DNA of 64,000 bases, taken from contig PEAN01000010.1 in NCBI GenBank assembly GCA_002753735.1, positions 6,937 through 70,936 of the forward strand. The letters are read 5' to 3'. Within the stretch, counting starts at the first letter, position 1. Every line of letters starts with the position of its first letter. Origin of the DNA: Magnetococcales bacterium DCbin4. Lineage in GTDB: Bacteria > Pseudomonadota > Magnetococcia > Magnetococcales > UBA8363. Both the position numbers and the translations under genes were made by a program. The notes under the pieces are model-generated. The model was not told the DNA's origin. It made no database searches and worked only from the letters and a program-made list of their open reading frames with translations. This document shows positions 3,439 through 47,195 of the stretch, piece by piece.

Positions 3439-4488
3439 CTAATGATGACGATCCACGGAGAACGTCGCCAACCGGATCAGGGCATCGCGTTCGCGTGAGG
3501 CGGGAAAACAGTCCGCTGCCTCCACCGCAGCCTCCGCCAGACTGCGCGCACGCGCCATGGCATAATCCAGGGAACCTCGTTGGCGCACCAGATCAATGGC
3601 CCGTTCCAGGCTTCCCTCGGGTTGATCTTTGGCTTCGATGCAACGGGTCCAAAAACGACGTTCTTCCTCGGAGCCATGATGAAAAGCATGGATCAAAGGA
3701 AGCGTGATCTTGCCTTCCTGGAAATCATCACCAATCCCCTTGCCCAGGGTTTCCCGGGTGGCGGAATAGTCCAGGGTATCATCCACCACCTGGTAGGCCT
3801 GTCCCAGAAGCAAACCATAGCGCGCAAGACGCTCTTCCTCGTCAACGGAACGATGATTCAACACGGCACCGATGCGGGCGGCGGCGGCGAATAATGTGGC
3901 GGTTTTTCTGGAAACCACTTCCATATATTGGGATTCGCTGGTCTCCAGATTGTTGCTGACCAACAATTGCATCACCTCTCCTTCCGAAATGACGGCACAG
4001 GCATCGGCGATGATTTCAAGCACACGCAGATCGCCATGCTCCACCAACATTTGGAAGGCACGGGAAAAAAGGAAATCACCAACGAGTACTGGAGCTTTGC
4101 TGCCCCAAACGGCATTGGCGGTCTGCCGCCCGCGCCGGGTGAGGGATTCATCCACCACATCATCGTGCAACAAAGTGGCGGTGTGAATGAATTCGACAAC
4201 CGCAGCCAGGGTGTAATGCTGTTCCCCCCGATAGCCAAACATGCGGGTTGCCAAAAGCGTCAGGATGGGCCGGAGCCGCTTGCCGCCACTGTTGATCAGG
4301 TGGGAACCCAGTTCGGGAATCAACGGCACCTGGGAATCAAGCCGATCAAGAATGACACGGTTGGTTTCCTTCAGGTCGGACCCGATGATGTCATGGAGAT
4401 AGTCAAGCACCGACTGGTCCCGTTCGCGAACCGACCGGTCCTGATGCGGGGATGCTTCCCGGGTCTGAGGCTGGACGAAGGCATCCAT
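3439..4488 (-). CDS. ispB: polyprenyl (octaprenyl) diphosphate synthase
   Basis: First DDxxD region LLHDDVVDESLTRRG and second motif YQVVDDTLDY. Overall trans-IPPS layout, 349 aa. Confidence 0.85.
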   Translation of the reverse strand: MDAFVQPQTREASPHQDRSVRERDQSVLDYLHDIIGSDLKETNRVILDRLDSQVPLIPELGSHLINSGGKRLRPILTLLATRMFGYRGEQHYTLAAVVEFIHTATLLHDDVVDESLTRRGRQTANAVWGSKAPVLVGDFLFSRAFQMLVEHGDLRVLEIIADACAVISEGEVMQLLVSNNLETSESQYMEVVSRKTATLFAAAARIGAVLNHRSVDEEERLARYGLLLGQAYQVVDDTLDYSATRETLGKGIGDDFQEGKITLPLIHAFHHGSEEERRFWTRCIEAKDQPEGSLERAIDLVRQRGSLDYAMARARSLAEAAVEAADCFPASRERDALIRLATFSVDRHH

Positions 4489-9778: not shown

Positions 9779-9925
9779 ACCCTGTTCAAAAAATAAGGCT
9801 CTTCCAGCGTTAGATGTGGTTGAATTGTGGAACCATTGCAAAACAGTCACTTTTTCTACTTTATCACATTCATTGATCAGGGATTATTGACAAAGTAGAA
9901 TTACAAAGCGTGAGGCATGACCAAA

Positions 9926-9945
9926 TGCGGCCCCGAAGGGCCGCA
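9926..9945 (-). terminator. GC-rich hairpin just downstream of the G/W-rich protein gene
   Basis: TGCGGCCC-cgaa-GGGCCGCA, a perfect 8-bp stem 13 nt after the stop at 9958. Only a weak T tract follows on the minus strand. Confidence 0.4.
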
Positions 9946-9957
9946 CGGTAAGACCTG

Positions 9958-10440
9958 TTATTGTTGCTGGGCAGCAGGAGCCGCTTCTTCGGCACCCTGG
10001 GGAGCCGCAGCGGGAGGAGCACCCCAACCGGGAGCACCACCCCAAGCACCCGGACCACCCGGACCAGCCGGACCGCCCCAAGCACCCGGACCGCCGCCCC
10101 AACCACCCGGACCACCCCAACCACCCGGACCACCCCAACCACCCGGATATCCGCCGTAAGGGCCGTAGCCATAACCGTTGTTCCAACCGTTGTTATTGTT
10201 CCAACCGTTGTTCCAACCATTATTGCCCGATCCGCCACCATCACCGCTCATGTTGAAACCGAAATTACCGGACGCACGACCGTTGCCAGTGCCGTTGCCG
10301 TTGTTCATCCAATTATTTCCCCAGTTGCCATTGTTATAGCCGGGGCCGTTACCCCACCAAGCCATGGCATCATCAGCGTTCATCATCACGACGCCCCCCA
10401 AAAGGGCCGCCACGGCCAACGTGGTCAATGTCTTCTTCAT
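9958..10440 (-). CDS. secreted Gly/Trp/Asn-rich repeat protein (sulfur-globule-protein-like architecture)
   Basis: Signal peptide MKKTLTTLAVAALLGGVVMMNADDAMA. Then WWGNGPGYNNGNWGNNW, central GNFGFNMSGDGGG, GWNN repeats, GGPGGW x3 (18-bp DNA tandem at about 10099-10150). Ala/Pro/Gln tail. Confidence 0.8.
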   Translation of the reverse strand: MKKTLTTLAVAALLGGVVMMNADDAMAWWGNGPGYNNGNWGNNWMNNGNGTGNGRASGNFGFNMSGDGGGSGNNGWNNGWNNNNGWNNGYGYGPYGGYPGGWGGPGGWGGPGGWGGGPGAWGGPAGPGGPGAWGGAPGWGAPPAAAPQGAEEAAPAAQQQ

Positions 10441-10510
10441 AGATTCGTTTCCTTACTCACATGGTTGATAAAAAAACACAAATCAAAAAATTCACTACCT
10501 TTTGAACAAA

Positions 10511-10933
10511 CTACCATCCCCAACCGCCGGGGCCACCCCAACGTCCAGGACCCCAGCCACCTGGACCACCCCAATTACCAGGACCCCAACCAACCGGACC
10601 ACCCCAACCCCCCGGGCCCCAGCCATTGTTACCCCAGCCATTGTTGCCCCAGCCATTGTTGCCCCAACCGTTGTTCCAACCGTTGTTCCACATATTGTTC
10701 CAGCCATCGCGGGTCAATCCTTCGAGATCCCCCTCCATGGTGAAATTCAAACGCGCCGTACCCCGCCCCCGACCATCGTTATTCCAATTATTTCCCCAAT
10801 TCCCCCCCCCATTGTTCCAACCCGGACCATCACCCCAACCCGGTCCCCACCAGGCAACGGATTCACTGGAAATCAGCATGCCAATGACCCCGATCAGAAC
10901 GGCCAAAACCGTCATTTGCAATTTTTTATTCAT
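10511..10933 (-). CDS. secreted Gly/Trp/Asn-rich repeat protein, paralog of 9958..10440
   Basis: Start at ATG 10933 (MNKKLQ) preceded by GAGGAG. Signal peptide ends SESVA-WWG. Central LNFTMEGD. GNNGW x3 (15-bp tandem at about 10619-10699). GGPGGWG repeats. Ends GGWGW. Confidence 0.8.
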   Translation of the reverse strand: MNKKLQMTVLAVLIGVIGMLISSESVAWWGPGWGDGPGWNNGGGNWGNNWNNDGRGRGTARLNFTMEGDLEGLTRDGWNNMWNNGWNNGWGNNGWGNNGWGNNGWGPGGWGGPVGWGPGNWGGPGGWGPGRWGGPGGWGW

Positions 10934-11116
10934 CCATCGACTCCTCATCCCGACAAAAAAAAAGCACCTTCCCCAGCAGCCCGCCAAAACGCCCTGGGGG
11001 TCTCAATGTCTCCAAAATATTCGTGTATGGACTAAAAACTAAAACAGGAATAAAGGTGGAAAAGAACAACCCAAGCCCTTCGTACACCCCGGCGCAACCC
11101 CACGCACCGACGTTTC

Positions 11117-11794
11117 CTACCATCGCCCCCCATCCCAATCGCCATATCCCCCATTGCCCCAGGGCCGCTCCTCCCACCCACGAGGGGGTCCATATGAGCG
11201 ATCCCCTCCCAATCCATGATCTGGGGCGCCCATATTGGGATTCACCGGAGAACCGTCACGGCCAAAACGCCAATCTCCACCCTCAGGACCTGCCCACCCG
11301 CCTGGATCGTGTTCCCAAGGGGCGATTGCTCCGGAACCATAATAATTCCGCCTCCGTTCCCAATCCCAATCGGCATGGGACGAAGAAGAGCCCCAAGGAT
11401 CATATTCCATCAAAGGCGAATTCCAATACCCCCACTGATTGGCACCCCATGGATCATACATGGGCACCGGTGTTCGATACCGATAGACATTCCTTCCATT
11501 TCCTTCAACCGGGCCATACCTCCGTTCATCAGCCTGCGGCGCATACCTGCCATCAGAAGCGCCTGCACTGCCCCGGTTCCCATCCACCCCTCCGGTCACA
11601 CCGGCATCACGCTTTGCACCGGACTTGCCCATTTCCTGCATGAAAGATCCCATGAACCGGCCAAACCGCTCACCCATATCCTGCAACTCACCATGGGCCG
11701 GAGCTTCACCACAATGGCCAAGTCCATTCCATAACAAAAGCACCTGAAAGAAACACCCAAAAACGATCAACCGTGTCATCAAGCTTTTTACCAT
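11117..11794 (-). CDS. secreted low-complexity W/G/D/R/P-rich protein
   Basis: Hydrophobic N-terminus MVKSLMTRLIVFGCFFQVLLLW. Then YDPWGANQWGYW, EYDPWG, DWDWERRR, GGDWRFGRDG. Ends DWDGGRW. Start uncertain (11794 or 11779). Confidence 0.6.
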   Translation of the reverse strand: MVKSLMTRLIVFGCFFQVLLLWNGLGHCGEAPAHGELQDMGERFGRFMGSFMQEMGKSGAKRDAGVTGGVDGNRGSAGASDGRYAPQADERRYGPVEGNGRNVYRYRTPVPMYDPWGANQWGYWNSPLMEYDPWGSSSSHADWDWERRRNYYGSGAIAPWEHDPGGWAGPEGGDWRFGRDGSPVNPNMGAPDHGLGGDRSYGPPRGWEERPWGNGGYGDWDGGRW

Positions 11795-11981
11795 GGCTCC
11801 CGGCAAGAAATGTTCCCTTTCCCTGTGTAAAATCCAATGCCATCGCCCCCATTTTATTATGACCACCATGCCACCTGAAAACCAGGATATATATTTTGAA
11901 TTTTTCATTATTCGAATATTATAAAATTCTAATATACAGACTGGGAGCACACTTTGCAAGAAAATAATCGGCGTTCCATCC

Positions 11982-12659
11982 TCATTTTTTCACCCCATCC
12001 GCCTGTGGAGGGGCACTGACTTTCTGAAATCCCGCCGGTAGATCAAACAAGGATTGAGGTTGCGCACCCTGTTTAAGGTTTTCCATATTCACTTCCAGGC
12101 CATCCACATAGGCTTCACGAATGGCAATTTTCAATCCAACATCCACCCACATCCGGGCATAAGGTTCAATCGAACCACCAGGGGCTGACGAACGCAACGA
12201 AATATCCCATAAACGGGTTTCACGCCCACCGATTGCCTGAACCCCCATCTCCCTGCAAACGAACTGAGGATCCTTGCGACACGGACTTTCCTGTTCATCC
12301 GGCATGGGTGGGCGACCGATGACCATCCCCTCGCTGACCGTATATACCTTCTGTTGCGGAAACAACGTCCAAACCAATTTTTCTTCGGGTTTGAAGATCA
12401 TCCATACCTTCTGTCCCGCCCGTTCACCTTCAGTCCGGACACCATGACGTCCCACATACATCCTTCCTTGGGTCACCCTGTTGTTTTCCTTTGTGTTCCT
12501 TCGCACAACATCCGCCGAAAATTCGTAAACCTCTGCGTCACCCTTTTCCGCCGCCGCTGCCAAGGTTGGCAGCCCGGCACAACAAAATACAGCCAAAAGC
12601 ACACCCCGAACCCACAAACGCTTAAGCGCCGAAGAAACCAATTGAATCGTAAAATTCAT
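11982..12659 (-). CDS. hypothetical periplasmic protein (ordinary composition, possibly LolA-like fold)
   Basis: Signal peptide LLAVFCCAGLPTLAAAAE. Globular composition unlike its neighbours. No motif I can name. Start set at MNFTIQL (12659). Confidence 0.55.
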   Translation of the reverse strand: MNFTIQLVSSALKRLWVRGVLLAVFCCAGLPTLAAAAEKGDAEVYEFSADVVRRNTKENNRVTQGRMYVGRHGVRTEGERAGQKVWMIFKPEEKLVWTLFPQQKVYTVSEGMVIGRPPMPDEQESPCRKDPQFVCREMGVQAIGGRETRLWDISLRSSAPGGSIEPYARMWVDVGLKIAIREAYVDGLEVNMENLKQGAQPQSLFDLPAGFQKVSAPPQADGVKK

Positions 12660-12954
12660 GAAATTCTGCCTGTGGAGACGATTGACCGGTATTGACATTC
12701 AAATAACAAAAAATGATTGGTAAATTGCATCAAGTCCATATTATGATTTAATACCATCACGGCAGCCTTGTCACACGATTTAAGATTTAAATAAAAAACA
12801 CCAGTTGGTTGAGGACAGGGCGTTGTCACGCATGATTGACCAATCACCCAAATTTCGGATCTCAAGCATGCGCCTGACAGGACGGAAACAACGCATAACT
12901 TGCTGGCGACTGGAAAGCAGGAAAACAATGTTTTTTACCATTCACCCGTTGGCA

Positions 12955-13325
12955 GGAAATCAATCAAAATCCCAGGTCCAATCCTTCAACATTCCTAAAC
13001 CGAGCCAAGCTTGGAATGCGCATTGTAACCATCCAGATCCACCCGCTTTTGGAAACAACCAAGAAAAAAAGGGTCCAGGAAAGGAAATTCCTCAAGGTTC
13101 TTCCATTATGCGCGTGATCGATCACCAATGAAAAACCTTGGGGGACTTCGTCCACCAGGTTTTGTTTTTTTCTTTTCCCGAAGGGACGTATCCTGAAACC
13201 AAAATCAAAACCAAAATCAAAACCTGGAGGACTTCGTCCCCCACACCCCCTGTGGGGGCTGTAAAACCAAAATCAAAATCTAAAGTCAAAACCCCGGGGG
13301 CAATCCCCCAGACCCCTTTTTTTTC
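12955..13325. repeat. intergenic repeat block, copy 1 of a dispersed hairpin-rich family
   Basis: Modules CAAAATCAAAACC, GGRGGACTTCGTCCCCC (GGGGGAC-ttc-GTCCCCC hairpin), CCCCCACA-ccccc-TGTGGGGG, GGGGGCAATCCCCC. A 10-bp inverted repeat CCAGGTTTTG (13155-13164) / CAAAACCTGG (13218-13227). Homologous blocks at 19212-19312 and 23221-23362. Confidence 0.7.
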
Positions 13326-13386
13326 TTAATAATGATGACAAAAACCACGTATCTAGAAGGCAGCGCGAATTTTTCTTGCTCAAGGG

Positions 13387-13728
13387 TCATCGCCGAAAAG
13401 CATCATCACCCCTGAACCGCGGTCCCCCCCCTGAAAGATCCTCCTCATCCTGCCACTCCAAAGGGACTTCACCCCAAGGCCGCACCGATTTCTGACGTGT
13501 CTGCGGCACAACCACCTTGTCCCCATCCTGATGCATCACGGCAGGCCACCCATATCGGGCACTTCCGGAAGCCGAAGGCGATGAAGTTCCATTCCGGCCG
13601 GTTGCCTGCGCGCCATCAGGGCGAATACGATATAAACCACTCCCCCAGGGGAGATCACCCGCCTGCCCCCACGCAGCAAAGGCCAATACCAATGCGACCG
13701 TCATTGAAATCCGAGAAAACGTCGACAT
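13387..13728 (-). CDS. small secreted hypothetical protein
   Basis: Signal peptide MSTFSRISMTVALVLAFAAWGQA. W/G/R/D-enriched mature part (DLPWGSG, RYGWP, RPWGEVPLEW). Confidence 0.55.
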   Translation of the reverse strand: MSTFSRISMTVALVLAFAAWGQAGDLPWGSGLYRIRPDGAQATGRNGTSSPSASGSARYGWPAVMHQDGDKVVVPQTRQKSVRPWGEVPLEWQDEEDLSGGGPRFRGDDAFRR

Positions 13729-13808
13729 GACAACCTACCGTCGACCAGAATTGAACATCAGGACAGGATGCCCTTGATGTGTTCATCCAACACGACCACT
13801 GCCCGCAC

Positions 13809-15047
13809 TCATCGCCACGGACCACGTACCGACCCCCCATCGGGATAATAACCACCCGGCCAGGAATAGGGATCATATCCCGGTCCATATCCCAAATCAT
13901 TCCCACGAAAGCCATCCCCTGGCCTCATCCACCCATCATAAGCAGGATTCAACCCCGGACTCGGAATCTCCCAGCTTCGATCACCACGATTCTCCCACCC
14001 CCCCGTCCACGAAAAACTGGAACCGCTTCCATTGCTTCCCATTCTCGAATCACCCACCCCCCCAGGGGCCACACGTCCCGGATGATCATCGCCATACTGC
14101 GGCCGATAAGGTCCGGAACCATATTCATAAGGATTGGAATCATAGGCCGTTCCCCTGCTTGGATCATCACCCGAACGCCCCTGATCAAGCCTCCCCGCAT
14201 CACCCGAATCGCGGAAACGTCCCTCCCCAACCTCGTCCTGACGAAAGCGACTCCCCGAAGGAGGATAACCATCATCCCGGTATCCATCTCCAGACCAACG
14301 CCCCGTCCCATCAACCGCACCACTTCGACCATCGCCCCAGAACCCCCGTGGCGGTTCCGCATGGACATCACGGCGCTGCTGCTTGCGCAAAAAATAAGGG
14401 TCAATCTCACGACGAGGGTCCAGCGTTTCCGAATCATAGAACTGATCCGAAGCCCCTGATCGATCAAAGTCGAAACGCCCCTCCCCGGATGAATCCCGCT
14501 CCGATCCCGATCCCACCCCCCGATCCTCACCAAATCTTGGATCGGGCAGTTTGCCATCACCATACCTCGGATCGGGCAGTCTGCCATCACCAAACCTCGG
14601 ATCGGGCAGTTTGCCATCACCAAACCTCGGATCGGGCAGTTTGCCATCACCCTCATTGCGAAATTCAGGCGGTGGATCCCAATAACGACTCCCCTCACCT
14701 GTATTCCAGCCCCACCCACGATTAGAGGCCGCCGGTGACGGTTGCCCAGTCGTGGTGGACTCCTTCCAACCATATACCCGATGTTCCGTACCAGCACCCG
14801 AAAAACCAACAGTGGCAGGATCGCTCGGCGATCCCTTCACTCCGGAATCATTGCCTTCTCTTCCTTCTTCTCCCATCCTTTGCGAACCGGAGGTGGAAAA
14901 CCGCTCCCCGGAGCTCACTGGACCCTGAACAACCGCCCCTTTCCCTGCCCCCGTTGCAGAAAATTCTCCGGCGGTGCCCACGACCGGGATCAAACCCAAA
15001 ACACACAGAACGAAAGGCAATGACTGTGCGCATGAAATTGGGCGCAT
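13809..15047 (-). CDS. secreted low-complexity G/D/R/P/W/Y-rich protein with decapeptide repeats
   Basis: ATG 15047 overlaps the RND stop (TGATG). Signal peptide MRPISCAQSLPFVLCVLGLIPVVGTAG. GDGKLPDPRF x4. Ends SVRGPWR. Confidence 0.7.
   Translation of the reverse strand: MRPISCAQSLPFVLCVLGLIPVVGTAGEFSATGAGKGAVVQGPVSSGERFSTSGSQRMGEEGREGNDSGVKGSPSDPATVGFSGAGTEHRVYGWKESTTTGQPSPAASNRGWGWNTGEGSRYWDPPPEFRNEGDGKLPDPRFGDGKLPDPRFGDGRLPDPRYGDGKLPDPRFGEDRGVGSGSERDSSGEGRFDFDRSGASDQFYDSETLDPRREIDPYFLRKQQRRDVHAEPPRGFWGDGRSGAVDGTGRWSGDGYRDDGYPPSGSRFRQDEVGEGRFRDSGDAGRLDQGRSGDDPSRGTAYDSNPYEYGSGPYRPQYGDDHPGRVAPGGVGDSRMGSNGSGSSFSWTGGWENRGDRSWEIPSPGLNPAYDGWMRPGDGFRGNDLGYGPGYDPYSWPGGYYPDGGSVRGPWR
14538..14652. 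repeat. 30-bp tandem repeat, about 3.8 copies, inside the coding sequence
   Basis: yGGATCGGGCAGTyTGCCATCACCAwACCT repeated head to tail. Encodes GDG(K/R)LPDPR(F/Y). Confidence 0.9.
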
Positions 15048-18000
15048 CACACCTCCTCGACGGTTCCTTCACCCGGATTCTTCGTCTTCAAACGAATCCC
15101 CCGCCGACCTCCGGTTGCCCCTTGCCCCTTGGATCGCCCCTGCGTTTGTCGCGAGGAAACACCCACATCCGCAGACTCAGGTTCCTTGACCGGCTCCAGC
15201 TCCTTGGGATCAAGCGCCACGGTATCCCTCTCAGCAACACCCGGGTGTTCACCCATGCCCACTTCTTCGACCATCTCCCTGGTCTGAGATTCATGATGAG
15301 TCGGTTCAATCTGATCTGCAACTGCCTCGCGTTCCTGAACCACAGCAGCTTCCTGAACCAAAGCAGCTTCCTGAACCACGACAGCTTCCTGAACCACGAC
15401 AGGCTCCTGAACCAAGACAGCTTCCTGTCCGACAGGATCTTGGACCTCGGCAGCCGCTTTTGGTTCCAACTCAATCTTGGCAGGTGATTCTTCGACCTGT
15501 ACCTGAGCGACCGTTTCCTGAACCATCACCTCGGACACGCCATCAGATTCCTTCGCCACGGCAACATCAACCTTGGGTTTCCGTGAGGTTGACCTCCCTT
15601 TTCCAGAACGCCGCCCCTTTTCTTCCACATCGTCACGCGCAACCTCCTTGCTTGCGACGATCTTGCGCAATTCGCTCTTGGCCCGGGTATAGGAATCCTT
15701 TTCCTCATTCACCGTTTCACTTTCACGCCATTCCACCGGAGCCGGGAGGTCAGGATCACATGCGGCACTGGCCCTGGCCGTCGACACACCACTACCCGGC
15801 CTGGCGAGGAAGCTTTCCGGTTCAGGGTGAACAAAACCACTCTGAGCCGTCACACATCCCAGGGGGATCACCAATAATGTCAACAAGGTGGAAACCAAAG
15901 CACCGAACAACAGCGAAATGGCCATCCCCTGAAAGATGAAATCCCCCAAAATCACGCTCGACCCCGCAACCAGGGCAAAAGCGGTAATCAGGATCGGACG
16001 TGTTCTGGCCTTACACGAAAGAATGACCGCATCCCGTACCGATACCCCTTTGAGGATCTCCTGTTGGGCGAAGTCGACCAACAGGATGGAGTTGCGCACG
16101 ATGATCCCCGCCAACGCAATGAAACCGATCATCGAGGTTGCGGTAAACTTGGCATTCAACAGCCAATGCCCGGGAATGATTCCCAACAGCGTCAACGGGA
16201 TGGGAGCCATGATGATGGCAGGGAGGATGAAGTTGCCAAATTCCCAGACCACCAACATGTAGATCAAAATCAAGGCGGCCCCAAACGCCATCCCCATGTC
16301 ACGGAAGGTTTCATAGGTCACGGTCCACTCGCCGGTCCACTCGAAACCAGACTGACTGTAGTTTTCCGGCGGCCCAAAATAGTTCCCTGAAATGGTCACG
16401 CCATCGGGCGTCTTGTACGTTGCGAGTTTCTCCTCGATCTCCGACATTCCATAGATCGGGGCATCCAAACGACCCGTCACCTCACCCGTGACGAACTCCA
16501 CCGGTCGTAAATCCTTATGGTAGATGATGGGATCTTGAAAATCCTTGATGAAACGTCCCAACTCACCCAATGGAATCGCCGTCCCATCCGGCGCAGAAAT
16601 GGGCAGGTCACTCATGCTGGATACCTTGGAACGAATTTCCAATGGGACCTGAAGGACAATGTAGGTCGGCTCCAGAATGCTCCCCCCTTTCACGTCACCC
16701 AACTGGGCCCCCCCCATCGCCATGGCCAGATTGCGATTGATGGCATCGACCGAGATACCCCGGCGTACCGCTTTTTCGGTATCGACCTCAAAGCGCCAGA
16801 ATTCATACGTTTGCTGGATGTAATTATCCACATCGACAATGCTTTCCGCTTCTTCGAAAAACCGGGTCATCTGTTCTGCCACCTGACGCCGGATCACAGC
16901 GGTCGGACCGGTCACCTCTGCCACGACCGACTGCAACACCGGCGGTCCGGGAGGCATTTCCACAACCTGAATGCGGGCACCCACCTTCTGGGCATAGGGG
17001 GTCAGGAATTCCCGGGTCGCCACCGCCAGATCATGACTGGTCCGTTTGCGATCACGCTTGTGCAACAGTTGCACCTGAATATCGGCCTCCCATGAATTGC
17101 GGCGCATATAGTAATGCCGCACCATCCCGTTGAAATTGAATGGCGAAGCGGTGCCGATATAAGTTTGCAAGGCCGTCACTTCGGGAACCTGACTCTTGAT
17201 CATTTCGGTCATGCGATTGGCCACATTGACCGTCCGTGGCAAAGCGGTCCCCTCGGGCATGTTGATGACCACATTAAACTCGGGTTTGTTGTCCAACGGC
17301 AGAATCTTCACCGTCACGTCAGTGGTATAGAACAAAAACATCGAACCAAAAAATCCCGCCACCAACAAACCCAGAAAGGCAAATCCCTTCACCCGGCTAT
17401 CCAACAGGCTGGGGATGATCCAACGATAAAACCGCTCCAGCCGCTCGACGCTCCGATGTTCCTTTTCCGAGTGAATGTGCAACGAACGCATGCTGGGTTT
17501 GATGAGCTGCGCCAGCCACGGGGTGAAAATGAACGCGGCAAACAATGAGAACAACATCGCCACCGACCCCAGCGCTGGAATCGGCTCCATGTACGGACCC
17601 ATCATCCCGCGGACAAACCCCATCGGCAGCAGGGCCGCAATCACGGTAAAGGTGGCCAGGATCGTGGGATTGCCCACCTCCCGCACCGCATCAATGGAAA
17701 TCAGATGACAGCATTGGTCTTCCAACAGCCAACGCCGATAGATGTTTTCCACCACCACAATGGCGTCGTCCACCAGAATACCGATGGAAAAAATCAGCGC
17801 GAACAACGAAACCCGGTCGATGGTGTACCCCAGGATCCAGGCGGCGAACACCGTCATCAGGATCACCACCGGGATCACCACCAACGTCACGATGGCCGGC
17901 TTGAACCCCAGGGAGTACCAGACCAGGAAGGTCACGGCCATGGTGGCGATCAACAATTTGAACAGCAGTTCGTTCACCTTTTCGTTGGCGGTTTCGCCAT

Positions 18001-19102
18001 AATTGCGGGTGACCGAAACATACACATTGTTGGGAATGAGATGCCCCTTCAACTCTTCCACCTTGGCCAACACCTGATTGGCGACGGTCACCCCGTTGGA
18101 GCCTTTTTTCTTGGCGATGGCCAGGGTTACCGCTGGAACGGAATTGGCCGCAGGGGTTTCCCCCTTGTAGGCGGGCCCGGTGGTGTAGGTCACCATCTGT
18201 TTGGTCTCTTCCGGTCCGGAAAACACCTGGGCCACATCCCGGACATAGACCGGCGAGTTGAACCGGGTTCCAACCATCAGCCGTGAAACATCCTGGGCAC
18301 TCTTGAGGAAGGATCCGGTATAGACCGTGAATCCCTGGTCGCCACTTTCAAGATGACCGATCCCCTGTTCGCTGTTGGCCGTCTTGATGGTTTGCGCAAT
18401 CTGGTCCAGACTGATCCCGAACCCCGACAACCGCTCCGGAAACACCTCCACCCGAATCTGCTCCGCCCGGCCACCGACGATAAACCCCTGGCTGGTATTA
18501 TCCACCTGTTTGATCTGTTGCAGCACATCCAGGGTCAAGGCACGCAAGGCACTGTCGTTGACATCCTCGCTCCACAAGGTCAACGTGACGATGGGAACGT
18601 CGTCCACCGCCTTGGGCTTCACCAGCGGCGGATTCACCCCAGGCGGAACCTTGTCCATGTTGGATTCGATCCGGTCGTACAACTTGACCAGCGATTCCTC
18701 CATATCCTGGCCGACATCAAACTCCACCGTGATCATCGCCTGCCCCCGCATCGATGCGGAATAGACATGCTTGACCCCCGATATTTCACTCATGATCCGT
18801 TCCAACGGATCGGTGACCAATGTCGCCACCTGCTCCGAAGAGGCACCGGGATATTGGACAAAAATATCCACCATCGGTACGGAAATCTGAGGATCCTCCT
18901 GGCGCGGCGTCAATAACAACCCCATCAACCCCATCGCCAGACACGCAAACAAAAACAACGGCGACAATGGCGAATGAATGAAGGCCTTGGCCATGTTGCC
19001 GGCCACGCCAAGGTTATGGTGAGGCCCTTCCATTTTTTCGGGTGGAGGAGGCAACTGACTACCTTTGGAATTGGAGGCTTTGGTCATGGTTCTTGGTTGC
19101 AA
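15047..19102 (-). CDS. RND efflux transporter permease (AcrB/AcrD/AcrF family) with long C-terminal low-complexity extension
   Basis: 12-TM RND layout with two large periplasmic loops (PMVDIFVQYPGAS..., GILVDDAIVVVENI, IALAGIIVRNSILLVDF). About 266 extra acidic residues follow the last TM. Alternative start at 19087. Confidence 0.85.
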   Translation of the reverse strand: MQPRTMTKASNSKGSQLPPPPEKMEGPHHNLGVAGNMAKAFIHSPLSPLFLFACLAMGLMGLLLTPRQEDPQISVPMVDIFVQYPGASSEQVATLVTDPLERIMSEISGVKHVYSASMRGQAMITVEFDVGQDMEESLVKLYDRIESNMDKVPPGVNPPLVKPKAVDDVPIVTLTLWSEDVNDSALRALTLDVLQQIKQVDNTSQGFIVGGRAEQIRVEVFPERLSGFGISLDQIAQTIKTANSEQGIGHLESGDQGFTVYTGSFLKSAQDVSRLMVGTRFNSPVYVRDVAQVFSGPEETKQMVTYTTGPAYKGETPAANSVPAVTLAIAKKKGSNGVTVANQVLAKVEELKGHLIPNNVYVSVTRNYGETANEKVNELLFKLLIATMAVTFLVWYSLGFKPAIVTLVVIPVVILMTVFAAWILGYTIDRVSLFALIFSIGILVDDAIVVVENIYRRWLLEDQCCHLISIDAVREVGNPTILATFTVIAALLPMGFVRGMMGPYMEPIPALGSVAMLFSLFAAFIFTPWLAQLIKPSMRSLHIHSEKEHRSVERLERFYRWIIPSLLDSRVKGFAFLGLLVAGFFGSMFLFYTTDVTVKILPLDNKPEFNVVINMPEGTALPRTVNVANRMTEMIKSQVPEVTALQTYIGTASPFNFNGMVRHYYMRRNSWEADIQVQLLHKRDRKRTSHDLAVATREFLTPYAQKVGARIQVVEMPPGPPVLQSVVAEVTGPTAVIRRQVAEQMTRFFEEAESIVDVDNYIQQTYEFWRFEVDTEKAVRRGISVDAINRNLAMAMGGAQLGDVKGGSILEPTYIVLQVPLEIRSKVSSMSDLPISAPDGTAIPLGELGRFIKDFQDPIIYHKDLRPVEFVTGEVTGRLDAPIYGMSEIEEKLATYKTPDGVTISGNYFGPPENYSQSGFEWTGEWTVTYETFRDMGMAFGAALILIYMLVVWEFGNFILPAIIMAPIPLTLLGIIPGHWLLNAKFTATSMIGFIALAGIIVRNSILLVDFAQQEILKGVSVRDAVILSCKARTRPILITAFALVAGSSVILGDFIFQGMAISLLFGALVSTLLTLLVIPLGCVTAQSGFVHPEPESFLARPGSGVSTARASAACDPDLPAPVEWRESETVNEEKDSYTRAKSELRKIVASKEVARDDVEEKGRRSGKGRSTSRKPKVDVAVAKESDGVSEVMVQETVAQVQVEESPAKIELEPKAAAEVQDPVGQEAVLVQEPVVVQEAVVVQEAALVQEAAVVQEREAVADQIEPTHHESQTREMVEEVGMGEHPGVAERDTVALDPKELEPVKEPESADVGVSSRQTQGRSKGQGATGGRRGIRLKTKNPGEGTVEEV
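15332..15429. repeat. 18-bp tandem repeat, about 5.4 copies, inside the RND tail coding region
   Basis: TTCCTGAACCAnrrCAGC units. Encodes the hexapeptide-periodic run QEAVLVQEPVVVQEAVVVQEAALVQEAAVVQE. Confidence 0.9.
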
Positions 19103-19211
19103 CCGGAAATTAAGGGTGTATGAATGGTATGTGCATTAGTGTTACCGCACCGACCGATCATCGGATTCATCATAACAATCGACAACAAAAATCCGATGCG
19201 TCCGCTCCATG

Positions 19212-19312
19212 AATTCAAAACTTTGGGGCAATCACCGCCCCCGATCCCCTGTTGAGGGATGTAAAACCATAAAAAAACAAAATCCCGGAGGCGATCCCCT
19301 GGCCCCCTGTCT
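19212..19312. repeat. intergenic repeat, copy 2 of the dispersed family
   Basis: CAAAACTTTGGGGCAATCACCGCCCCCGATCCCCTGTTGAGGGATGTAAAACCA...CAAAATCCCGGAGGCGATCCCCTGGCCCCC aligns module by module with 13214-13316. Confidence 0.65.
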
Positions 19313-19490
19313 TCCTCGATCCATGGTTCCGAGGAACCTTCCTTGAACCGCACCCCGCTTCAGATGCACCGTGTTCAAACGTGATTCCCGCAAACACTTT
19401 GGAATCCACCAGCGATGAACCTCACGTTGAATCCTGATGTCCCCCTCTTTCCCTGATCATGAGGGAAATGCATCTCGTACCGGCTGCGGA

Positions 19491-20726
19491 TCAGAACGAA
19501 GGTGATGGTTTTTCCTCTTCCTTGTCCTTGCCCTGCTGGGTATCCCAGCCTCCGATCATCCCTGCGGGTGGCTCGGCATAAATCTGCTCCCCAACCTGAA
19601 GCCCCGACAACACGCTGACCGAATCGGTTTCCACAAAACCACCCAGCCGGATCATGCGCAGTTCGGGTTCCTTCCCCGGCGTCACAATCAAAACCGCCGG
19701 CAGAGAACCGCGCCAGCTCACCGCCGACTTGGGGATGACAGGCAGACTGCGCACCGGGGTGGTGACGTCAGGAATCATCACCTCGGCATACATTCCCGGC
19801 CCCGCCGGAGAACCCTTGGCCAGATCCAGCTTGACCGTCACGGTATGCCGTTGCGGATCGGCCATGGGAAAGACCTGAGCCACCTTGGTTTCCGCTTCAA
19901 CCCCCCCGACATCAAGCTTGGCCGGAATCAACATCCCTTTTTTGACACCGGGCATGAGACGCGCAGGAATGTCCACCTTGATCTGAAGATGCCGGGTATC
20001 GGCAAAACTCAACAACGGCATCCCCGGCTGCACGGTATCGCCAAGTTCGATATGCTTGGCAACGATCACTCCGGCAAACGGGGAAATGGAACGGGTATCA
20101 CGCAGTTTGGCCTCCAGCTCCTGAAGCGCCGCCTGCGCCTGTGTCAATGCGTAACGGGCCTGGTCGATCTGGGTCCCCTGGGCATAGATCTGCGCCCTCC
20201 GGGTCAGTTCGGGACTGTCCAGCCCGATCATGTCGGACATGGGACGGGTCATCACCCGATCAAACATGCGGGGCATGTCCATCCCCATGTTATCCGAAGC
20301 CATGCTCGAACCCGAATAAACCTGACGGGTATACTGCACCCGGGCATTGCGCCAATTGGCGGTTGCCGTTGCCAATGCCGCCTGCGCCGATCGGCGCTTG
20401 GCCAGCAGGTCATCCTCGTCCAGGGCCACCAACACCACCCCCTTCTTGAACCAATCCCCCTCCACCCCGGCAATGTATTCCACCCGGCCGGGCATCTGGG
20501 CGGCAAACGACACCTCCCGATAGGGAACCACGGTTCCCCCCAGGGTCGTGGTTGCGCCGATGGCCGCTTCCCCCACGGTAATGATCCGGTGCCCACCTCC
20601 CGATGCTGCGGTGCCAACGGTTCCACTACCGGAAGCACTTTCGCCGGCTGCCCATGGCACATCGGGTCGAACAATCCAGACCGCAAGCGCCAGCAACAGC
20701 GCCATCAATGTGATCAATGTCCTCAT
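19491..20726 (-). CDS. efflux RND transporter periplasmic adaptor (MFP/HlyD family)
   Basis: Signal/TM MRTLITLMALLLALAVWI. Lipoyl-like, coiled-coil and beta-barrel layout (GGTVVPYREVSFAAQMPGRVEYI, ALTQAQAALQELEAKL, SISPFAGVIVAKHIELGDTV). Confidence 0.8.
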   Translation of the reverse strand: MRTLITLMALLLALAVWIVRPDVPWAAGESASGSGTVGTAASGGGHRIITVGEAAIGATTTLGGTVVPYREVSFAAQMPGRVEYIAGVEGDWFKKGVVLVALDEDDLLAKRRSAQAALATATANWRNARVQYTRQVYSGSSMASDNMGMDMPRMFDRVMTRPMSDMIGLDSPELTRRAQIYAQGTQIDQARYALTQAQAALQELEAKLRDTRSISPFAGVIVAKHIELGDTVQPGMPLLSFADTRHLQIKVDIPARLMPGVKKGMLIPAKLDVGGVEAETKVAQVFPMADPQRHTVTVKLDLAKGSPAGPGMYAEVMIPDVTTPVRSLPVIPKSAVSWRGSLPAVLIVTPGKEPELRMIRLGGFVETDSVSVLSGLQVGEQIYAEPPAGMIGGWDTQQGKDKEEEKPSPSF

Positions 20727-20839: not shown

Positions 20840-21235
20840 TCACACGCGTCCCATCACCGAAAAGGATTTGATGAATGGCGCCGCCATTCGTGGATCCTTG
20901 ATCATGGCACCGTAATCCCCCACGTTGAATTTAAGCTTGCGTGAGGTATAGGCCATGCCAAGACCCATCATGCCGATCCCTTTGGAAATCCATTTTTCCC
21001 AGTTGGCCTTGCTGGCGCGCAGATCCCAATTGAGGGGTTCTCCGTCGTAGGGACCGCTTTTGACGACCTTCCCCTTTTGCACCACAATCACACCGACGGG
21101 TTTGTCATCACCCTCGAAACCGTAGGCAATCGTCGAATTGAAATCGATTTCAGCCAGGGCATCGGAAAGTTCCTTTTCCTTATTCCACTCTTCCTGAAAA
21201 CGGGTCATCCATCCTGCGGAAAACAATTCGGCCAT
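20840..21235 (-). CDS. SCP2 sterol/lipid-binding domain-like protein
   Basis: 131 aa. ATG 21235 preceded by AAGGAG. SCP2-like pattern MAELFSAGWMTRFQEEWN...RASKANWEKWISKG...YTSRKLKFNVGDYGAM. Assignment by resemblance only. Confidence 0.5.
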   Translation of the reverse strand: MAELFSAGWMTRFQEEWNKEKELSDALAEIDFNSTIAYGFEGDDKPVGVIVVQKGKVVKSGPYDGEPLNWDLRASKANWEKWISKGIGMMGLGMAYTSRKLKFNVGDYGAMIKDPRMAAPFIKSFSVMGRV

Positions 21236-21428: not shown

Positions 21429-22226
21429 TCAGACGATGATGCGGCGACGCACCAATGCCACGGCAGCGACGAAGGAGATCATGGCATAAATGGCGATCAC
21501 CGCCAGATTCATCCCGATCTCTTCCGGCAGGCGGCCGTGCCCCGCGGGACGTACCAATGCCACGACATGGGTCAGGGGAAGCGATGACACCAGGAACTGG
21601 ACCAGGGACGGCAGTGAGGCGACCGGATAAAAGACGCCACAGAACAAAAACATTGGCGTCGTCACCAGGGTGAAATAATAAAGGAAAAAGTCGTACCCGG
21701 GAGAAATCGCCGTCACCACCATGGCCATGGCACCAAACGTCAAGCCCGACAGAAACACCACGGGCAGTGCCATGATGGCTGCTTGCGGCGGAAAGGCATC
21801 CAGCAGCATGGCGACGATGAAAATAGCCACCCCTGCGATCAGGGAACGGGTCGCGGCCCAGACCACCTCTCCCGCAACGACATCGGCCACCGTCAGTGGC
21901 GTTGCCAGCATGGCATGAAAGGTGTTTTGCCGAACCATCCGGGTGAATCCGCCGTAGACCGCCTCAAAGGTAGCGGTATTCATGCTGTTGGCGGCCAGGA
22001 TTCCCGAAGCCACATAGACCAGATAATCCATGTCGCCGATCATTCCCACAAACCGCCCCAGGCCATATCCCAAACCCACCAGATACAAAAAAGGTTCACC
22101 CAGACTTCCGGCAAGGGAAGCAGCCGCGGTTTTCCGCCATACCATGAAATGCCGCAGCCATACCTGGCCGAATCTTCTGGAGGGGATGAATCGCCACACC
22201 TGCCGCATCATGGAACCCCCGCTCAT
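21429..22226 (-). CDS. ABC-2 type transporter permease (NodJ-like)
   Basis: Six predicted TM helices. N-terminus WRFIPSRRFGQVWLRHFMVWRK is typical of ABC-2 permeases. ATGA overlap with the ATPase stop at 22223-22226. Confidence 0.75.
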   Translation of the reverse strand: MSGGSMMRQVWRFIPSRRFGQVWLRHFMVWRKTAAASLAGSLGEPFLYLVGLGYGLGRFVGMIGDMDYLVYVASGILAANSMNTATFEAVYGGFTRMVRQNTFHAMLATPLTVADVVAGEVVWAATRSLIAGVAIFIVAMLLDAFPPQAAIMALPVVFLSGLTFGAMAMVVTAISPGYDFFLYYFTLVTTPMFLFCGVFYPVASLPSLVQFLVSSLPLTHVVALVRPAGHGRLPEEIGMNLAVIAIYAMISFVAAVALVRRRIIV

Positions 22227-23143
22227 GAGCCTTCTCCCAGATCGTGACCGGTCAAACGCAAGAATACATCCTCCAGGTTGGCCGGACGCAGAAGACAGGA
22301 ATAGCCATCCCGTTGCCGCACCCGGGCACGCAACGATTCCAACTGCACGCCATGAACATAAAGGACATCCCCCACCCGTTCCAGTCGTCCCGGAAGTGGT
22401 CCGAACGTATTTGGATCGGGGCACCCCTTGTGGGTCCAAACTTCCAGCACTTCCGGTTCCACATGTTTGGCGATGAGGGCTTCAGGGGTCCCCTGATCAA
22501 GAATGCGTCCCTGGTCAAGGATCAACAACCGGTCACACAGACGGGAGGCCTCTTCCATGTAATGGGTCGTCAGGAGCAGGGTGACCCCGCGTTCCTTGAG
22601 GCTGGCCAACCGCTGCCAGATCAGATGCCGTGCCTGGGGATCCAATCCGGTCGTCGGTTCATCGAGAATGACCATTCTGGGTTGTGCCACCAGGGCACGG
22701 GCGATCACCAGACGGCGCATCATGCCACCCGAAAGGATGCGTACCGGGGCATCGCGCCGGTCGCTCAACTGGGCAAACTCCAAAAGATGTTCGATCCGTT
22801 CCGCCCGCGCCCTGGCCGGCATACCGAAATAGCGGCAATAGACCTCCAGATTTTCCGCCACCCCCAGATCGGTATCCAGATTGTTTTCCTGGGGAACGAT
22901 TCCCAATTGCGCCGCAATCAGGGGATCTTCCGGAACGACATCACGGCCCAGGATTTCCAGCCGGCCCCCATCCCTCGGAGTTAAACCGGTGATCATGCGC
23001 ATGGTGGTACTTTTGCCGGCCCCATTGGGTCCGAGAAACCCAAAGCATTCCCCTTGCCGGATTTCAAAATCGATCCCATCCACCACCATGCGCGCCCCAT
23101 AACGTTTGGTCAGATTGGAGGCCAGAATGATGGTCGATCGCAT
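22223..23143 (-). CDS. ABC transporter ATP-binding protein (NodI/DrrA-like)
   Basis: Walker A GPNGAGKST, Q-loop, signature LSGGMMRRL, Walker B ILDEPTTGLD, H-loop TTHYMEE. Start trimmed to MRSTII (23143). Confidence 0.85.
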   Translation of the reverse strand: MRSTIILASNLTKRYGARMVVDGIDFEIRQGECFGFLGPNGAGKSTTMRMITGLTPRDGGRLEILGRDVVPEDPLIAAQLGIVPQENNLDTDLGVAENLEVYCRYFGMPARARAERIEHLLEFAQLSDRRDAPVRILSGGMMRRLVIARALVAQPRMVILDEPTTGLDPQARHLIWQRLASLKERGVTLLLTTHYMEEASRLCDRLLILDQGRILDQGTPEALIAKHVEPEVLEVWTHKGCPDPNTFGPLPGRLERVGDVLYVHGVQLESLRARVRQRDGYSCLLRPANLEDVFLRLTGHDLGEGS

Positions 23144-27950: not shown

Positions 27951-29045
27951 TCATAATCCTTGATCTCCTTCACCAAGAACAAAATAATATCCCCCCTGCA
28001 AAATTGCCTGCAACAATTCCGTTGGACCTTTCATGAGACCACCGGCATCACCCGGGGTGACGACCTTGAAACGATGACGATTCAACCAGGAACGAACCCA
28101 CGGATAATCAAAGGAAGACAAACCCCGATATTCATTGCGGGCAGCCCACTGCATCACCCCGTCGAACAGGACACCGCCCACCTGGTCGATATCTGAATCA
28201 ACCCACAGATCAAGACATTCCAGGTAGGGGTATCCTCGCACAATCCGCCGCTCAAAAATTGCATATCCAGCCAGCGTCTCTCCCTGAAAACATCCAAACA
28301 GTAATTTCATTTTGGATGGAACGCTGAAACAATACCAGTTAACATACGTTGCATTGCGAACCCGGGTCGTCGAAAATGCGGTTCGAGTTCGCTGCCAAAG
28401 ATGATCAAATGCGACCCCTGCTTGGTTTAACTGTTTCACCTGCCAGGGTCCACTGGAATATTTTTGGGACAACAGCAACTTAATTCGAACATACCACTGA
28501 TGAAATGATCCCAGTCTCCATTGTAATCCGATGGGCCATCGTCGGATGATGGATACATCGTGAAGCCAAGCGAAAATACTTGAAAAAACCAGGATACGTT
28601 GCGAAAACGGGTAGGGAATTGGCTGATAATGGAGTCGTTCAACTATTGCTCCAGACAAATTATTAAGTGTCGTATTCCATATAATTGTATCAGCCCCTTC
28701 CCTCAATACGGATAGAAATAGAATCAGGCCATTTTTCCTGTATTCCGGAGTCACATACCAAGAAGATACAGTCAATGTCAATCGTTCCTTCCCTGCCAAC
28801 TGGAAAAGAATCGGAATACAGCTAATAAACCCAACAATTCGTCCTTCTGCCCTTAGTAACCAGCCCCGAGGGATTGAATCCTCACGGAAAGGATTTTTAT
28901 CCCACCACATGGCAAATTTTCCTTGCCAATATTCATTAGATCGTACAGTGTTCCGGAAATCATGTAATAATTCCGCAATACCATCATAATCATTCGGAGT
29001 AACGCCATGAACAGAAACTGCGTGAGTTGGCTGTGGATTATTCAT
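27951..29045 (-). CDS. GNAT-like acyltransferase family protein
   Basis: GWLLRAEGRIVGFISCIPI...SSWYVTPEYRKNGLILFLSVL is a GNAT motif-A-like region. Similar layout to the ORF at 60885..61754. Confidence 0.55.
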   Translation of the reverse strand: MNNPQPTHAVSVHGVTPNDYDGIAELLHDFRNTVRSNEYWQGKFAMWWDKNPFREDSIPRGWLLRAEGRIVGFISCIPILFQLAGKERLTLTVSSWYVTPEYRKNGLILFLSVLREGADTIIWNTTLNNLSGAIVERLHYQPIPYPFSQRILVFSSIFAWLHDVSIIRRWPIGLQWRLGSFHQWYVRIKLLLSQKYSSGPWQVKQLNQAGVAFDHLWQRTRTAFSTTRVRNATYVNWYCFSVPSKMKLLFGCFQGETLAGYAIFERRIVRGYPYLECLDLWVDSDIDQVGGVLFDGVMQWAARNEYRGLSSFDYPWVRSWLNRHRFKVVTPGDAGGLMKGPTELLQAILQGGYYFVLGEGDQGL

Positions 29046-29787
29046 ATCACACGAACATGATCTGTAAAAACCGTTTATTTATACTCAATTACCTTTTAGG
29101 CGACATGTTTATTCCGTCATCCGACAACGAAACAAAACGACTTTGCAACTGGCCACAAAACGGTCAATGACTTCCATAGCCAATATCTGCTCCCGTTTTG
29201 AAACACCGTGCAATAATGGCATAAGGGCGGTACAACCCATAGTGAATCCAATAAATGCCTGCATCACTTCGAAATCAGATCCAGGTAACGACTTAACCAT
29301 GATGATCCCGGTAATCGATACCATTGATCCACGACAAATGGATATCACGTTTTTCTAAGAAATATTCAATAATTAGCTTGAAATTTCATTCGCCCTCCGC
29401 GACAAGGCAAGAAAATCATCATAGCCATTTTCGGCACAAACAGAATGTGCCGATATACCAAGTCAGGGCCATTCAGTATCATTTCCACCTGGGGCGAACA
29501 CCGTCTGCCATCAGGAAGAATACTCAATAATATTTCCATAATCCAAACCATCAGAAAGCTGCCAGGATATCAGGATTATGGGCGACAATTTGTTCAATGA
29601 TATCGGATATCCCGTAATCCTCATGATCATTCATGAAAACAAATACTGAATACGTCATCATATTCTTATTGTGTCAGATATTCATGAAGAAGAGTAAAAG
29701 CCATGGAGCGCGCCCACTTTGGCATCCCTGGGTCTTGTTTGACATTGGAGTGTATTGTCAAGCAGGCGACCTTGATCAGTTTCTCTG

Positions 29788-47149: not shown

Positions 47150-47195
47150 ATGATTGATGATCATTTTGGTCGTGATTTGTTGTCACAGGGAAAGT

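Follow-up and report, generated by a model that had tools for sequence, protein, structure and literature searches.

What would an inner-membrane exporter have to do with a run of secreted proteins that are almost devoid of aliphatic residues? The question is raised by a gene array in Magnetococcales bacterium DCbin4 (assembly GCA_002753735.1), within a stretch of 64,000 nucleotides (contig PEAN01000010.1, positions 6,937 to 70,936 of the forward strand) that is called the window here and whose own numbering is used throughout. A preliminary description of this DNA, made from its letters alone, had drawn attention to positions 9958-20726, in which genes for a membrane fusion protein (MFP) and a resistance-nodulation-division (RND) transporter are followed by six genes for secreted proteins, and had suggested that the low-complexity members of this group might coat or nucleate an extracytoplasmic deposit of sulfur, mineral or polymer. 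The analysis reported here points to the first of these deposits, through the relation of two of the proteins to the sulfur globule protein (SGP) family of Pfam, and indicates that the array is probably the form that a conserved cluster of sulfur-oxidizing bacteria, for the envelope of sulfur globules and for transport, takes in Magnetococcales. The cluster is widespread in these bacteria and appears not to have been described before; a literature search found no paper on the linkage between this pump and SGP genes.

The array consists of nine co-oriented genes on the minus strand, from p131, the first, to sgp160, the last (Table 1). The coordinates and common strand of the eight genes described earlier were reproduced, and p131, which lies outside the region then described, is a ninth conserved gene of the unit. 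The products may be regarded as three sets of parts, comprising a transport module (p131, the MFP adaptor and the RND pump), a protein with a predicted LolA-like fold (p225o), and Sec-exported low-complexity proteins (p412, p113, p225w, sgp140 and sgp160).

Two proteins of the array resemble sulfur globule proteins

Sulfur globules have been reported in magnetotactic cocci (preprint 10.64898/2025.12.17.695019). In A. vinosum the globules are periplasmic and bear a coat of Sec-exported Sgp proteins, and the envelope of globules is described there as a layer made of protein (PMC10386293). The last two proteins of the array, sgp140 and sgp160, are repetitive, are encoded in part by tandem repeats, and have W, not Y, as their main aromatic residue; the mature proteins (113 and 133 aa) contain 37% Gly, 10-18% W and 1.5-5% I+L+V+M. 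A search with sgp160 (phmmer) retrieved ten proteins, eight of which carry Pfam PF17228 (SGP, 'Sulphur globule protein'), with E values for these between 1.7e-10 and 5e-5, and one of which was named 'Sulphur globule protein' by JGI. The PF17228 proteins and sgp160 have in common a collinear plan, in which a signal peptide is followed by AWWG, GNFGFNMSG, G[WY]GGP repeats and APPAAAP. The architecture of sgp140 is the same (alignment A3), and the mature starts of the two proteins, ...AMA/WWGNG and ...SVA/WWGPG (the slash precedes the mature part), align to AQA/WWGGG of PF17228-positive proteins. Comparison of profiles built from 13 Magnetococcales-type and 8 PF17228-positive sequences (hhalign) gave a probability of 99.5 and an E value of 6e-23; when only the mature parts were used the score was 85.6, against 41.4 for a reversed control and at most 20.7 for 30 column shuffles. 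Based on the collinear motifs and a profile score far above these composition controls, sgp140 and sgp160 are filed here as divergent relatives of the SgpA/SgpB family that lie outside its formal Pfam definition.

The resemblance extends to the characterized proteins, as SgpA and SgpB are likewise small (mature proteins of this family have about 10-15 kDa) and Sec-exported, with an AWWG-like start, a G-x-F-x-F-x-M-S-G centre, Gly/aromatic/Pro repeats and an Ala/Pro tail. Proteins of this kind are thus not without precedent, contrary to what the preliminary description had supposed. There are also differences: the sgp genes of A. vinosum are described as separate transcription units (PMC10386293), whereas sgp140 and sgp160 are clustered with a pump, and the Sgp proteins of A. 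vinosum coat globules, a location that for sgp140 and sgp160 is predicted. The cluster would extend the SGP family to Magnetococcales; no paper linking sgp genes to this order was found in the library that was searched.

Stand-alone SGP-like genes lie beside a Peptidase_M48 (HtpX-like) gene in two unrelated metagenome loci; the coordinates of the stand-alone SGP-like loci are 1591-2727 in locus L011, 765-1649 in L015 and 1986-2870 in L016.

The linkage recurs in two classes

The preliminary description had proposed that genomes be surveyed for co-occurrence of the tailed RND pump with W/G-rich secreted proteins, and such co-occurrence, with secreted low-complexity proteins rich in W/G/Y, was found in Magnetococcales, in a Thiotrichales metagenome-assembled genome (MAG) and in about ten sediment-metagenome contigs. 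The order p131-MFP-RND-p412-p113-LolA-like-p225w-SGP-SGP is present in at least seven distinct Magnetococcales genomes with a complete RND gene. In Magnetococcus sp. THC-1 the RND, p412-type, p113-type and LolA-like genes overlap or directly adjoin one another, and the first three of these overlap in the isolate C5_bin.1. Outside Magnetococcales, Ectothiorhodospiraceae and Thiotrichales MAGs retain p131-MFP-RND(+tail)-LolA-like, and the Thiotrichales MAG has a secreted W/G/R/D open reading frame (ORF) between the RND and LolA-like genes. The sediment-metagenome contigs, about ten that are distinct and long, form one group without taxonomic assignment that is referred to here as gamma-type. In every one of them the order is p131, MFP, RND(+tail), secreted proteins (one to three, rich in P/Q/Y/G/W, following the RND gene), SGP-like, LolA-like, so that the SGP gene precedes the LolA-like gene, whereas it follows it in Magnetococcales. 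The seven gamma-type SGP-like genes that were scanned scored 12-48 bits to Pfam SGP, with four reaching the threshold of 26.7 bits. In three loci p131 is also preceded by SGP genes, of which three were scanned and scored 41-63 bits.

Approximately 24 loci have a complete pump and sufficient DNA downstream of it, and of these about 17 contain an SGP gene and about 20 a LolA-like gene. The flanking genes are unlike between the lineages, which, together with the breadth of the linkage, indicates that an inherited neighbourhood alone does not account for it. The genome scan used peptide patterns biased towards Magnetococcales, and LolA-like genes of gamma-type in cultured species would thus be missed.

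Two neighbours of clusters outside Magnetococcales may be mentioned. In gamma-type clusters a ParA/MinD-like ATPase gene is usually next 3' of the LolA-like gene (10688-11500 in L029, 10701-11372 in L030, 18711-19373 in L049, and five other metagenome loci), which could hint at the positioning of inclusions; it is the sole recurrent neighbour in the flanks of ten long loci, and is absent at the equivalent place in the window. In the Ectothiorhodospiraceae MAG a pyridine-nucleotide-disulfide oxidoreductase gene, for a flavoprotein resembling sulfide:quinone oxidoreductase (SQR) or type II NADH dehydrogenase (NDH-2), is located 2 kb downstream of the cluster (L029, 12431-13567).

The pump is of the hydrophobe/amphiphile type

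The core of the RND protein matches Pfam ACR_tran (PF00873) with 492.9 bits over residues 38-1081, and its solved relatives in the PDB were found at E values from 1e-62 (6vej, the best) to 1e-42. Transmembrane helix 4, GILVDDAIVVVEN, aligns residue for residue to LVDDAIVVVEN of AcrB-type pumps, in which the Asp pair is the proton relay. This AcrB-type DD motif places the protein with the hydrophobe/amphiphile pumps and not with the metal pumps. None of the named NCBIfam subfamilies claimed it, the best, RND_permease_2, giving 436 bits at a cut-off of 1250. The adaptor matches Pfam HlyD_D23 and HlyD_3 as well as NCBIfam RND_mfp (145 bits, cut-off 94.9), and contains a loop, GMGMPxLFDxxxTRPM..MMG, that is kept throughout the subfamily.

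The pump resembles AcrAB-type (HAE1) systems in the common 12-helix ACR_tran core, the DD motif and a partner adaptor gene, but differs from them in the Met-rich loop of the adaptor, in its p131 and LolA-fold partners, in a tail of about 260 aa that ends in RRGIRLK, and in a cluster that has no gene for an outer-membrane factor. No OEP/TolC-like gene was seen in the cluster region, from 9.9 to 23 kb of the window, and the OEP genes in some metagenome flanks belong with other RND pumps; an outer-membrane factor may be encoded elsewhere in the genome. The sequence [KR]RRGIRLK was found in 25 of 28 RND ORFs of the subfamily, as well as in the window, and RRGIRLK ends the tails of both gamma-type and Magnetococcales pumps. 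The tail of the window's pump includes a coding tandem repeat (15332-15427, 18 bp x 5.3). Gamma-type tails (L029, L030, L036-L101) contain in addition a strongly hydrophobic stretch of 19 residues, which may be a 13th helix and is missing from Magnetococcales tails.

The third member of the module, p131, is 63-95% identical among Magnetococcales, Ectothiorhodospiraceae and Thiotrichales loci, and at least 327 metagenome matches were obtained by tblastn, with the MFP and RND genes always following it where the contig allows. It had no sequence match in Pfam, NCBIfam or the PDB, and its single-sequence structure model was poor (pLDDT 41). The NCBI product name, 'SCP-2 sterol transfer family protein', could not be reproduced and was set aside: none of nine family members had a Pfam match at E ≤ 10, the p131 profile found among PDB sequences only a MaoC protein (E 0.23), and hhalign against an approximate sequence of human SCP2 returned a probability of 0.4. 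Directly upstream of p131 is a NodI/NodJ-like ABC-2 exporter pair (21429-23143), which is present at this place in all Magnetococcales loci and not in gamma-type loci.

A LolA-like fold is predicted for p225o

The 225-aa protein that had been described as ordinary is, by structure prediction, the carrier-like part of the array. Its AlphaFold2 model (pLDDT 82) is an open beta-barrel of 11 strands, for which Foldseek returned EPDR1 (6jl9, E 5e-8) as best match in the PDB, followed by LolA, RseB, LprG and VioE, all at probability 1.00, with E values of 5e-8 to 1e-5 and TM scores of 0.4-0.6. The protein is thus predicted to have a LolA/ependymin-like fold. No Pfam or NCBIfam model matched it, those of LolA, LolB and LprG included. 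At the equivalent place, 11 metagenome loci encode homologues (E 1e-42 to 1e-54), and a library of 1.84 billion proteins contains 440 representatives of the family at E ≤ 1e-10. Two cysteines, C128 and C136, are invariant in the family, which fits a periplasmic disulfide. Elsewhere, proteins with a LolA-type fold carry hydrophobic ligands.

The low-complexity ORFs are genes under purifying selection

All six secreted products other than the pump components open with a signal-peptide-like segment, as had been stated before; signal peptides were called by eye and alignment. The scarcity of aliphatic residues in five of them is also real: past the signal segment I+L+V+M amounts to 7.0% in p412, 13.3% in p113, 8.7% in p225w, 5.3% in sgp140 and 1.5% in sgp160, compared with 23-31% in ordinary proteins of the window. 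The W-containing tails that had been attributed to these five proteins are present in three (RGPWR, DGGRW and GGWGW), while sgp160 ends in ...AAPAAQQQ and p113 in ...DAFRR. Scans of the six proteins against Pfam and NCBIfam returned nothing but a meaningless rodlin match (E 0.0024) on a signal peptide; for p225w there was no family match at all.

These ORFs are nonetheless genes. Their orthologues are found in the same frame and the same order at saturated synonymous divergence, with ratios of nonsynonymous to synonymous substitution rates (dN/dS) of 0.06-0.49 (Table 1), and purifying selection thus acts on them. It could be argued that low-complexity ORFs are by-products of skewed, repetitive DNA, in which ORFs overlap in several frames, GC skew is strong and tandem repeats are coding, but the same-frame, same-order orthologues, the conserved signal peptides and motifs and the dN/dS values make this hardly credible.

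Homologues of p412 were found only in Magnetococcales, where they are always immediately 3' of the RND gene. The window's copy contains a coding repeat (14527-14651, 30 bp x 4.2) that encodes GDGKLPDPRF. The copy number of the repeats in the RND tail and p412 varies among nearly identical sister strains (L007, 8225-8326; L009, 9138-9202), and in one MAG the RND gene was called as two pieces. Orthologues of p113 have 174-214 aa and end in ...PGPFGW or ...PDPFDW; p113 itself is C-terminally shortened and lacks the 60-100 residues (...PGPFGW) of its orthologues, a loss that coincides with insertion of a region like a repetitive extragenic palindrome (REP). Orthologues of p225w hold the same position in Magnetococcales loci.

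Among 3846 ORFs in the fetched loci, 29 contain the motif RPWG, and about 24 of the 29 sit between the RND gene and an SGP or LolA-like gene, in Magnetococcales and gamma-type loci. In both lineages the ORF just 5' of the SGP or LolA-like gene has the motif RPWG[ET].P, usually with a terminal W. Homology of p412, p113 and p225w to the gamma-type proteins is not claimed, as only the RPWG motif and the terminal W are common to them.

Layout of the array and its probable transcription units

The stop codon of the RND gene and the start codon of p412 share one base (TGATG), with GAGGAGG just upstream, as had been noted. The preliminary description had extended this coupling from the pump to the six secreted proteins as a group, and it holds for the RND-p412 pair only. 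The remaining spacers are, in gene order from p131, 134, 403 (MFP-RND), 80, 727 (p113-p225o), 187, 183 and 70 bp, those among the secreted proteins being 70-727 bp. Two terminator-like GC hairpins, each with a U-run, are located immediately 3' of p113. The 727-bp spacer that bears them divides the array here, which is what the preliminary description had named as evidence against joint regulation, but the orthologous clusters are tightly packed, which identifies this spacer as a local insertion. We read the array in this genome as probably comprising several units, at least RND-p412-p113 and a separate downstream group, and the hairpin just 3' of sgp160 is the probable terminator.

The length of the MFP-RND spacer ranges among genomes from about 100 bp to about 400 bp, and conservation is confined to a leader of about 40 nucleotides, possibly a site that controls translation or transcription. 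An Rfam scan of 9-24 kb of the window, the leader included, found no RNA family. Eight upstream regions had no k-mer meaningfully in common, and a site for a common regulator thus finds no support.

Table 1. Features of the gene array. Positions are those of the window; dN/dS was computed against two Magnetococcales orthologues (L019 and L018), and the values are rough because dS is saturated.
Feature	Position	Strand	Description	dN/dS
p131	20840..21235	-	131-aa cytoplasmic protein without signal peptide; opens the conserved module	0.026
Adaptor (MFP)	19491..20726	-	Periplasmic membrane fusion protein, conserved Met-rich loop	
REP-like GC-rich hairpin element	19225..19310	-	In the 403-bp MFP-RND spacer	
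Leader, about 40 nt	19088..19127	-	Abuts the RND start codon; conserved in Magnetococcales (five spacers aligned)	
RND gene, whole	15047..19087	-	1346 aa	
RND transporter core	15833..19087	-	AcrB-like, HAE1 type	0.05
RND C-terminal tail	15047..15832	-	About 260 aa, acidic, low-complexity; RRGIRLK at 15086-15106	0.31-0.34
p412	13809..15047	-	Secreted G/D/R/P/W low-complexity protein, 412 aa	0.30-0.40
p113	13387..13728	-	Secreted, 113 aa, RPWGE.P motif	0.44-0.49
REP-like/terminator-like composite element	13140..13330	-	GC hairpins, each followed by a U-run; (GATTTT)n	
p225o	11982..12659	-	Periplasmic, predicted LolA/ependymin-like fold, 225 aa	
p225w	11117..11794	-	Secreted W/G/D/R low-complexity protein, 225 aa, ends in ...DGGRW	0.12-0.19
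sgp140	10511..10933	-	Filed as divergent SgpA/SgpB-family protein (Pfam SGP-like), 140 aa	0.06-0.19
sgp160	9958..10440	-	Filed as divergent SgpA/SgpB-family protein (Pfam SGP-like), 160 aa	0.08-0.10
Hairpin	9925..9947	-	Stable, just 3' of sgp160; -25.7 kcal/mol, z -3.4	

A dispersed element and the rest of the window

The composite element at 13140-13330 is made up of an A-run, a GC hairpin (GGGGTCTGGGGGATTGCCCCCGGGG), (GATTTT)n and a second hairpin, and the element in the MFP-RND spacer (19225-19310) is a related copy. It is dispersed, occupying different intergenic spacers in different Magnetococcales (L018, about 14341-14724; L019, about 4100-4250; L002, 7090-7240) and standing at the cluster end in Magnetococcus sp. 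THC-1. A part of contig JADFWW010000009.1 (GCA_015234015.1) is 100% identical to the window, and four sister MAGs (labelled 'Magnetococcales bacterium' by NCBI) have contigs with 99.2-99.7% identity to it; sister-MAG contigs stop or fork exactly at this element. In L002 the SGP half of the array is joined to LysR and NADH dehydrogenase genes; since this junction falls exactly at the element we regard it as an assembly fork or REP-mediated variant, and rejected it as a sign that the halves are independent.

The remainder of the window contains housekeeping genes and a probable defence island, and no magnetosome operon. Four adjacent minus-strand genes at 45465-53387 (HD-domain, DEAD/Lhr-like helicase, BrxC/BrxD-family ATPase and TerB_N/TerB/TerB_C) look like a phage-defence island. 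The region 27951-32182, of low GC (0.44 versus about 0.55), contains two ORFs, one with a GNAT domain and one of 452 aa without Pfam match, and may be acquired DNA.

Discussion

If the array is, as we think probable, a sulfur-globule envelope and transport cluster, we infer a globule location for its products, a cargo with its direction of movement, and contacts between the parts. The exported low-complexity proteins would form the envelope or matrix of periplasmic sulfur globules, and a hydrophobic component would travel to them from the inner membrane by way of the pump and the LolA-fold protein, for which an outer-membrane channel would not be required. A hydrophobic cargo is suggested by the AcrB-type DD motif together with the LolA/LprG/ependymin-like fold of p225o, and by the SCP-2-like product name of p131 at NCBI, which was not reproduced. 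The cargo could be sulfur, in zero-valent form or as polysulfane, that is produced at the membrane, or else a lipid-like constituent of the envelope. An inner-membrane transporter is likewise paired with a LolA-fold carrier in LprG-Rv1410 (P55) of Mycobacterium tuberculosis and in LolCDE-LolA, in both of which transporter and carrier act together on hydrophobic cargo. The transporters are, however, of different classes, MFS in Rv1410, ABC in LolCDE and RND in the cluster described here, and p225o has no sequence relation to the LolA or LprG families.

Two published loci are reminiscent of parts of the cluster. In A. vinosum sgpD (Alvin_2515) adjoins a gene for a hydrophobe/amphiphile exporter (PMC10386293), so that a globule-protein gene stands beside such an exporter gene as it does here, although SgpD belongs to a protein family other than that of sgp140 and sgp160. 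In Azospira suillum an unknown protein, an RND pump, SQR and MFP (Dsui_3440-3443) are encoded in one sulfide-induced operon, which is induced during H2S oxidation that deposits elemental sulfur; deletion of the operon left the rate of sulfide oxidation unaffected (PMC5358917). RND and MFP genes are together in both systems, in Azospira with a sulfide-oxidizing enzyme, but no SGP or LolA-like gene was reported there.

It should be emphasized that several observations weigh against a globule cluster. Neither sgp140 nor sgp160 matches Pfam SGP even at E ≤ 10 (gathering threshold 26.7 bits), while their relatives P0002, P0004 and P0006 scored 33-71 bits in the same scan, and the two proteins have W and N where canonical SGPs have Y and G or D. 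Profile hidden Markov models of Magnetococcales p412, p113 and p225w found no match outside Magnetococcales among the metagenome ORFs. Of the approximately 24 informative loci, four (L045, L074, L102 and L107) lack both SGP and LolA-like genes downstream, and SGP genes are also found alone elsewhere. The flanks of the ten long metagenome loci were not enriched in sulfur-oxidation enzymes, and sox, dsr and fcc genes were seen neither there nor in the rest of the window, which contains no sulfur-oxidation operon. Co-transcription of the whole array is unlikely in this genome, given the hairpin-bearing 727-bp spacer and the 403-bp spacer between MFP and RND. Finally, Alvin_2516, the gene next after sgpD, is reported not to be co-regulated with it (PMC10386293).

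A more specific form of the proposal, which is possible but which we hold to be doubtful, is that the cluster encodes a dedicated machine for zero-valent sulfur, in which the pump collects sulfur or polysulfane made at the membrane and globules coated by SGPs receive it. The Met-rich adaptor would aid the pump, delivery would be direct or through the LolA-fold carrier, SGPs and the disordered proteins with a terminal W would make up the globule envelope, and gating of the pump would be the task of cytoplasmic p131 and of the RRGIRLK tail.

The pump might instead serve ordinary efflux, of toxic hydrophobic compounds or metal-sulfide complexes in sulfidic habitats, for example, and be merely adjacent to globule genes. 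Coupling within the window is confined to RND and p412, with hairpins and long spacers dividing the rest, and some p131-MFP-RND loci are without SGP and LolA-like genes, as SGP genes are in places without the pump. The sulfide-induced RND pumps of Azospira were taken to be a response to metal-sulfide stress (PMC5358917), and the separate regulation of Alvin_2516 and sgpD would also suit an efflux function. Mere adjacency, however, is difficult to reconcile with a linkage that recurs in two classes, with unlike flanks and a different internal order, and with RND-to-LolA-like genes that overlap or abut in several genomes. In addition, RRGIRLK is lost in two of the three scored loci without the extension of the p131-MFP-RND module, and is kept or nearly kept in all loci with it, although the sample is small. 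We consider efflux an unlikely explanation.

It could also be argued that the cluster supplies a periplasmic inclusion or envelope but that its cargo is a lipid or lipoprotein, as in the LprG-Rv1410 and LolCDE-LolA systems. The best fold matches of p225o include LolA, LprG and RseB, gamma-type RPWGE proteins have lipobox-like signal peptides (..AGCSDDEP), and the name SCP-2-like that NCBI gives to p131, which as described above was not reproduced, denotes a lipid-carrier family. The Magnetococcales RPWGE protein p113, however, has no Cys in its signal peptide, the LolA-fold protein is not a lipoprotein, and the globule envelope is described as consisting of protein (PMC10386293). We consider this reading rather improbable.

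Very unlikely, in our opinion, is that the W/G-rich proteins form a periplasmic or surface matrix, or the coat of carbonate or phosphate-rich granules, and that their likeness to SGPs reflects a material property in common and not the same cargo. Magnetotactic cocci do contain several kinds of inclusion (preprint 10.64898/2025.12.17.695019), and sgp140 and sgp160 have an odd W/N composition and fall below the Pfam threshold. Against this, the motifs are collinear with those of SGPs, the composition controls fall far short of the profile score, SGPs that Pfam does detect occupy the equivalent place in gamma-type clusters, and the named carriers of the cluster beyond Magnetococcales belong to Ectothiorhodospiraceae and Thiotrichales. 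Polyphosphate and carbonate granules are, moreover, generally considered cytoplasmic, whereas the proteins here have signal peptides.

To our knowledge, how elemental sulfur is delivered to periplasmic globules, retained there and mobilized again has yet to be resolved. The introduction of the A. vinosum study (PMC10386293) covers coat proteins only. The cluster defines several uncharacterized families, namely p131, the LolA-like proteins and the RPWGE-motif proteins, and an RND subfamily with a conserved tail motif. By linking putative coat proteins of globules to an energy-driven pump for hydrophobes and to a protein with a predicted carrier fold, it provides named gene candidates. If the view of a dedicated machine for zero-valent sulfur is true, it would fill the step by which sulfur enters globules, and perhaps also that by which it leaves them.

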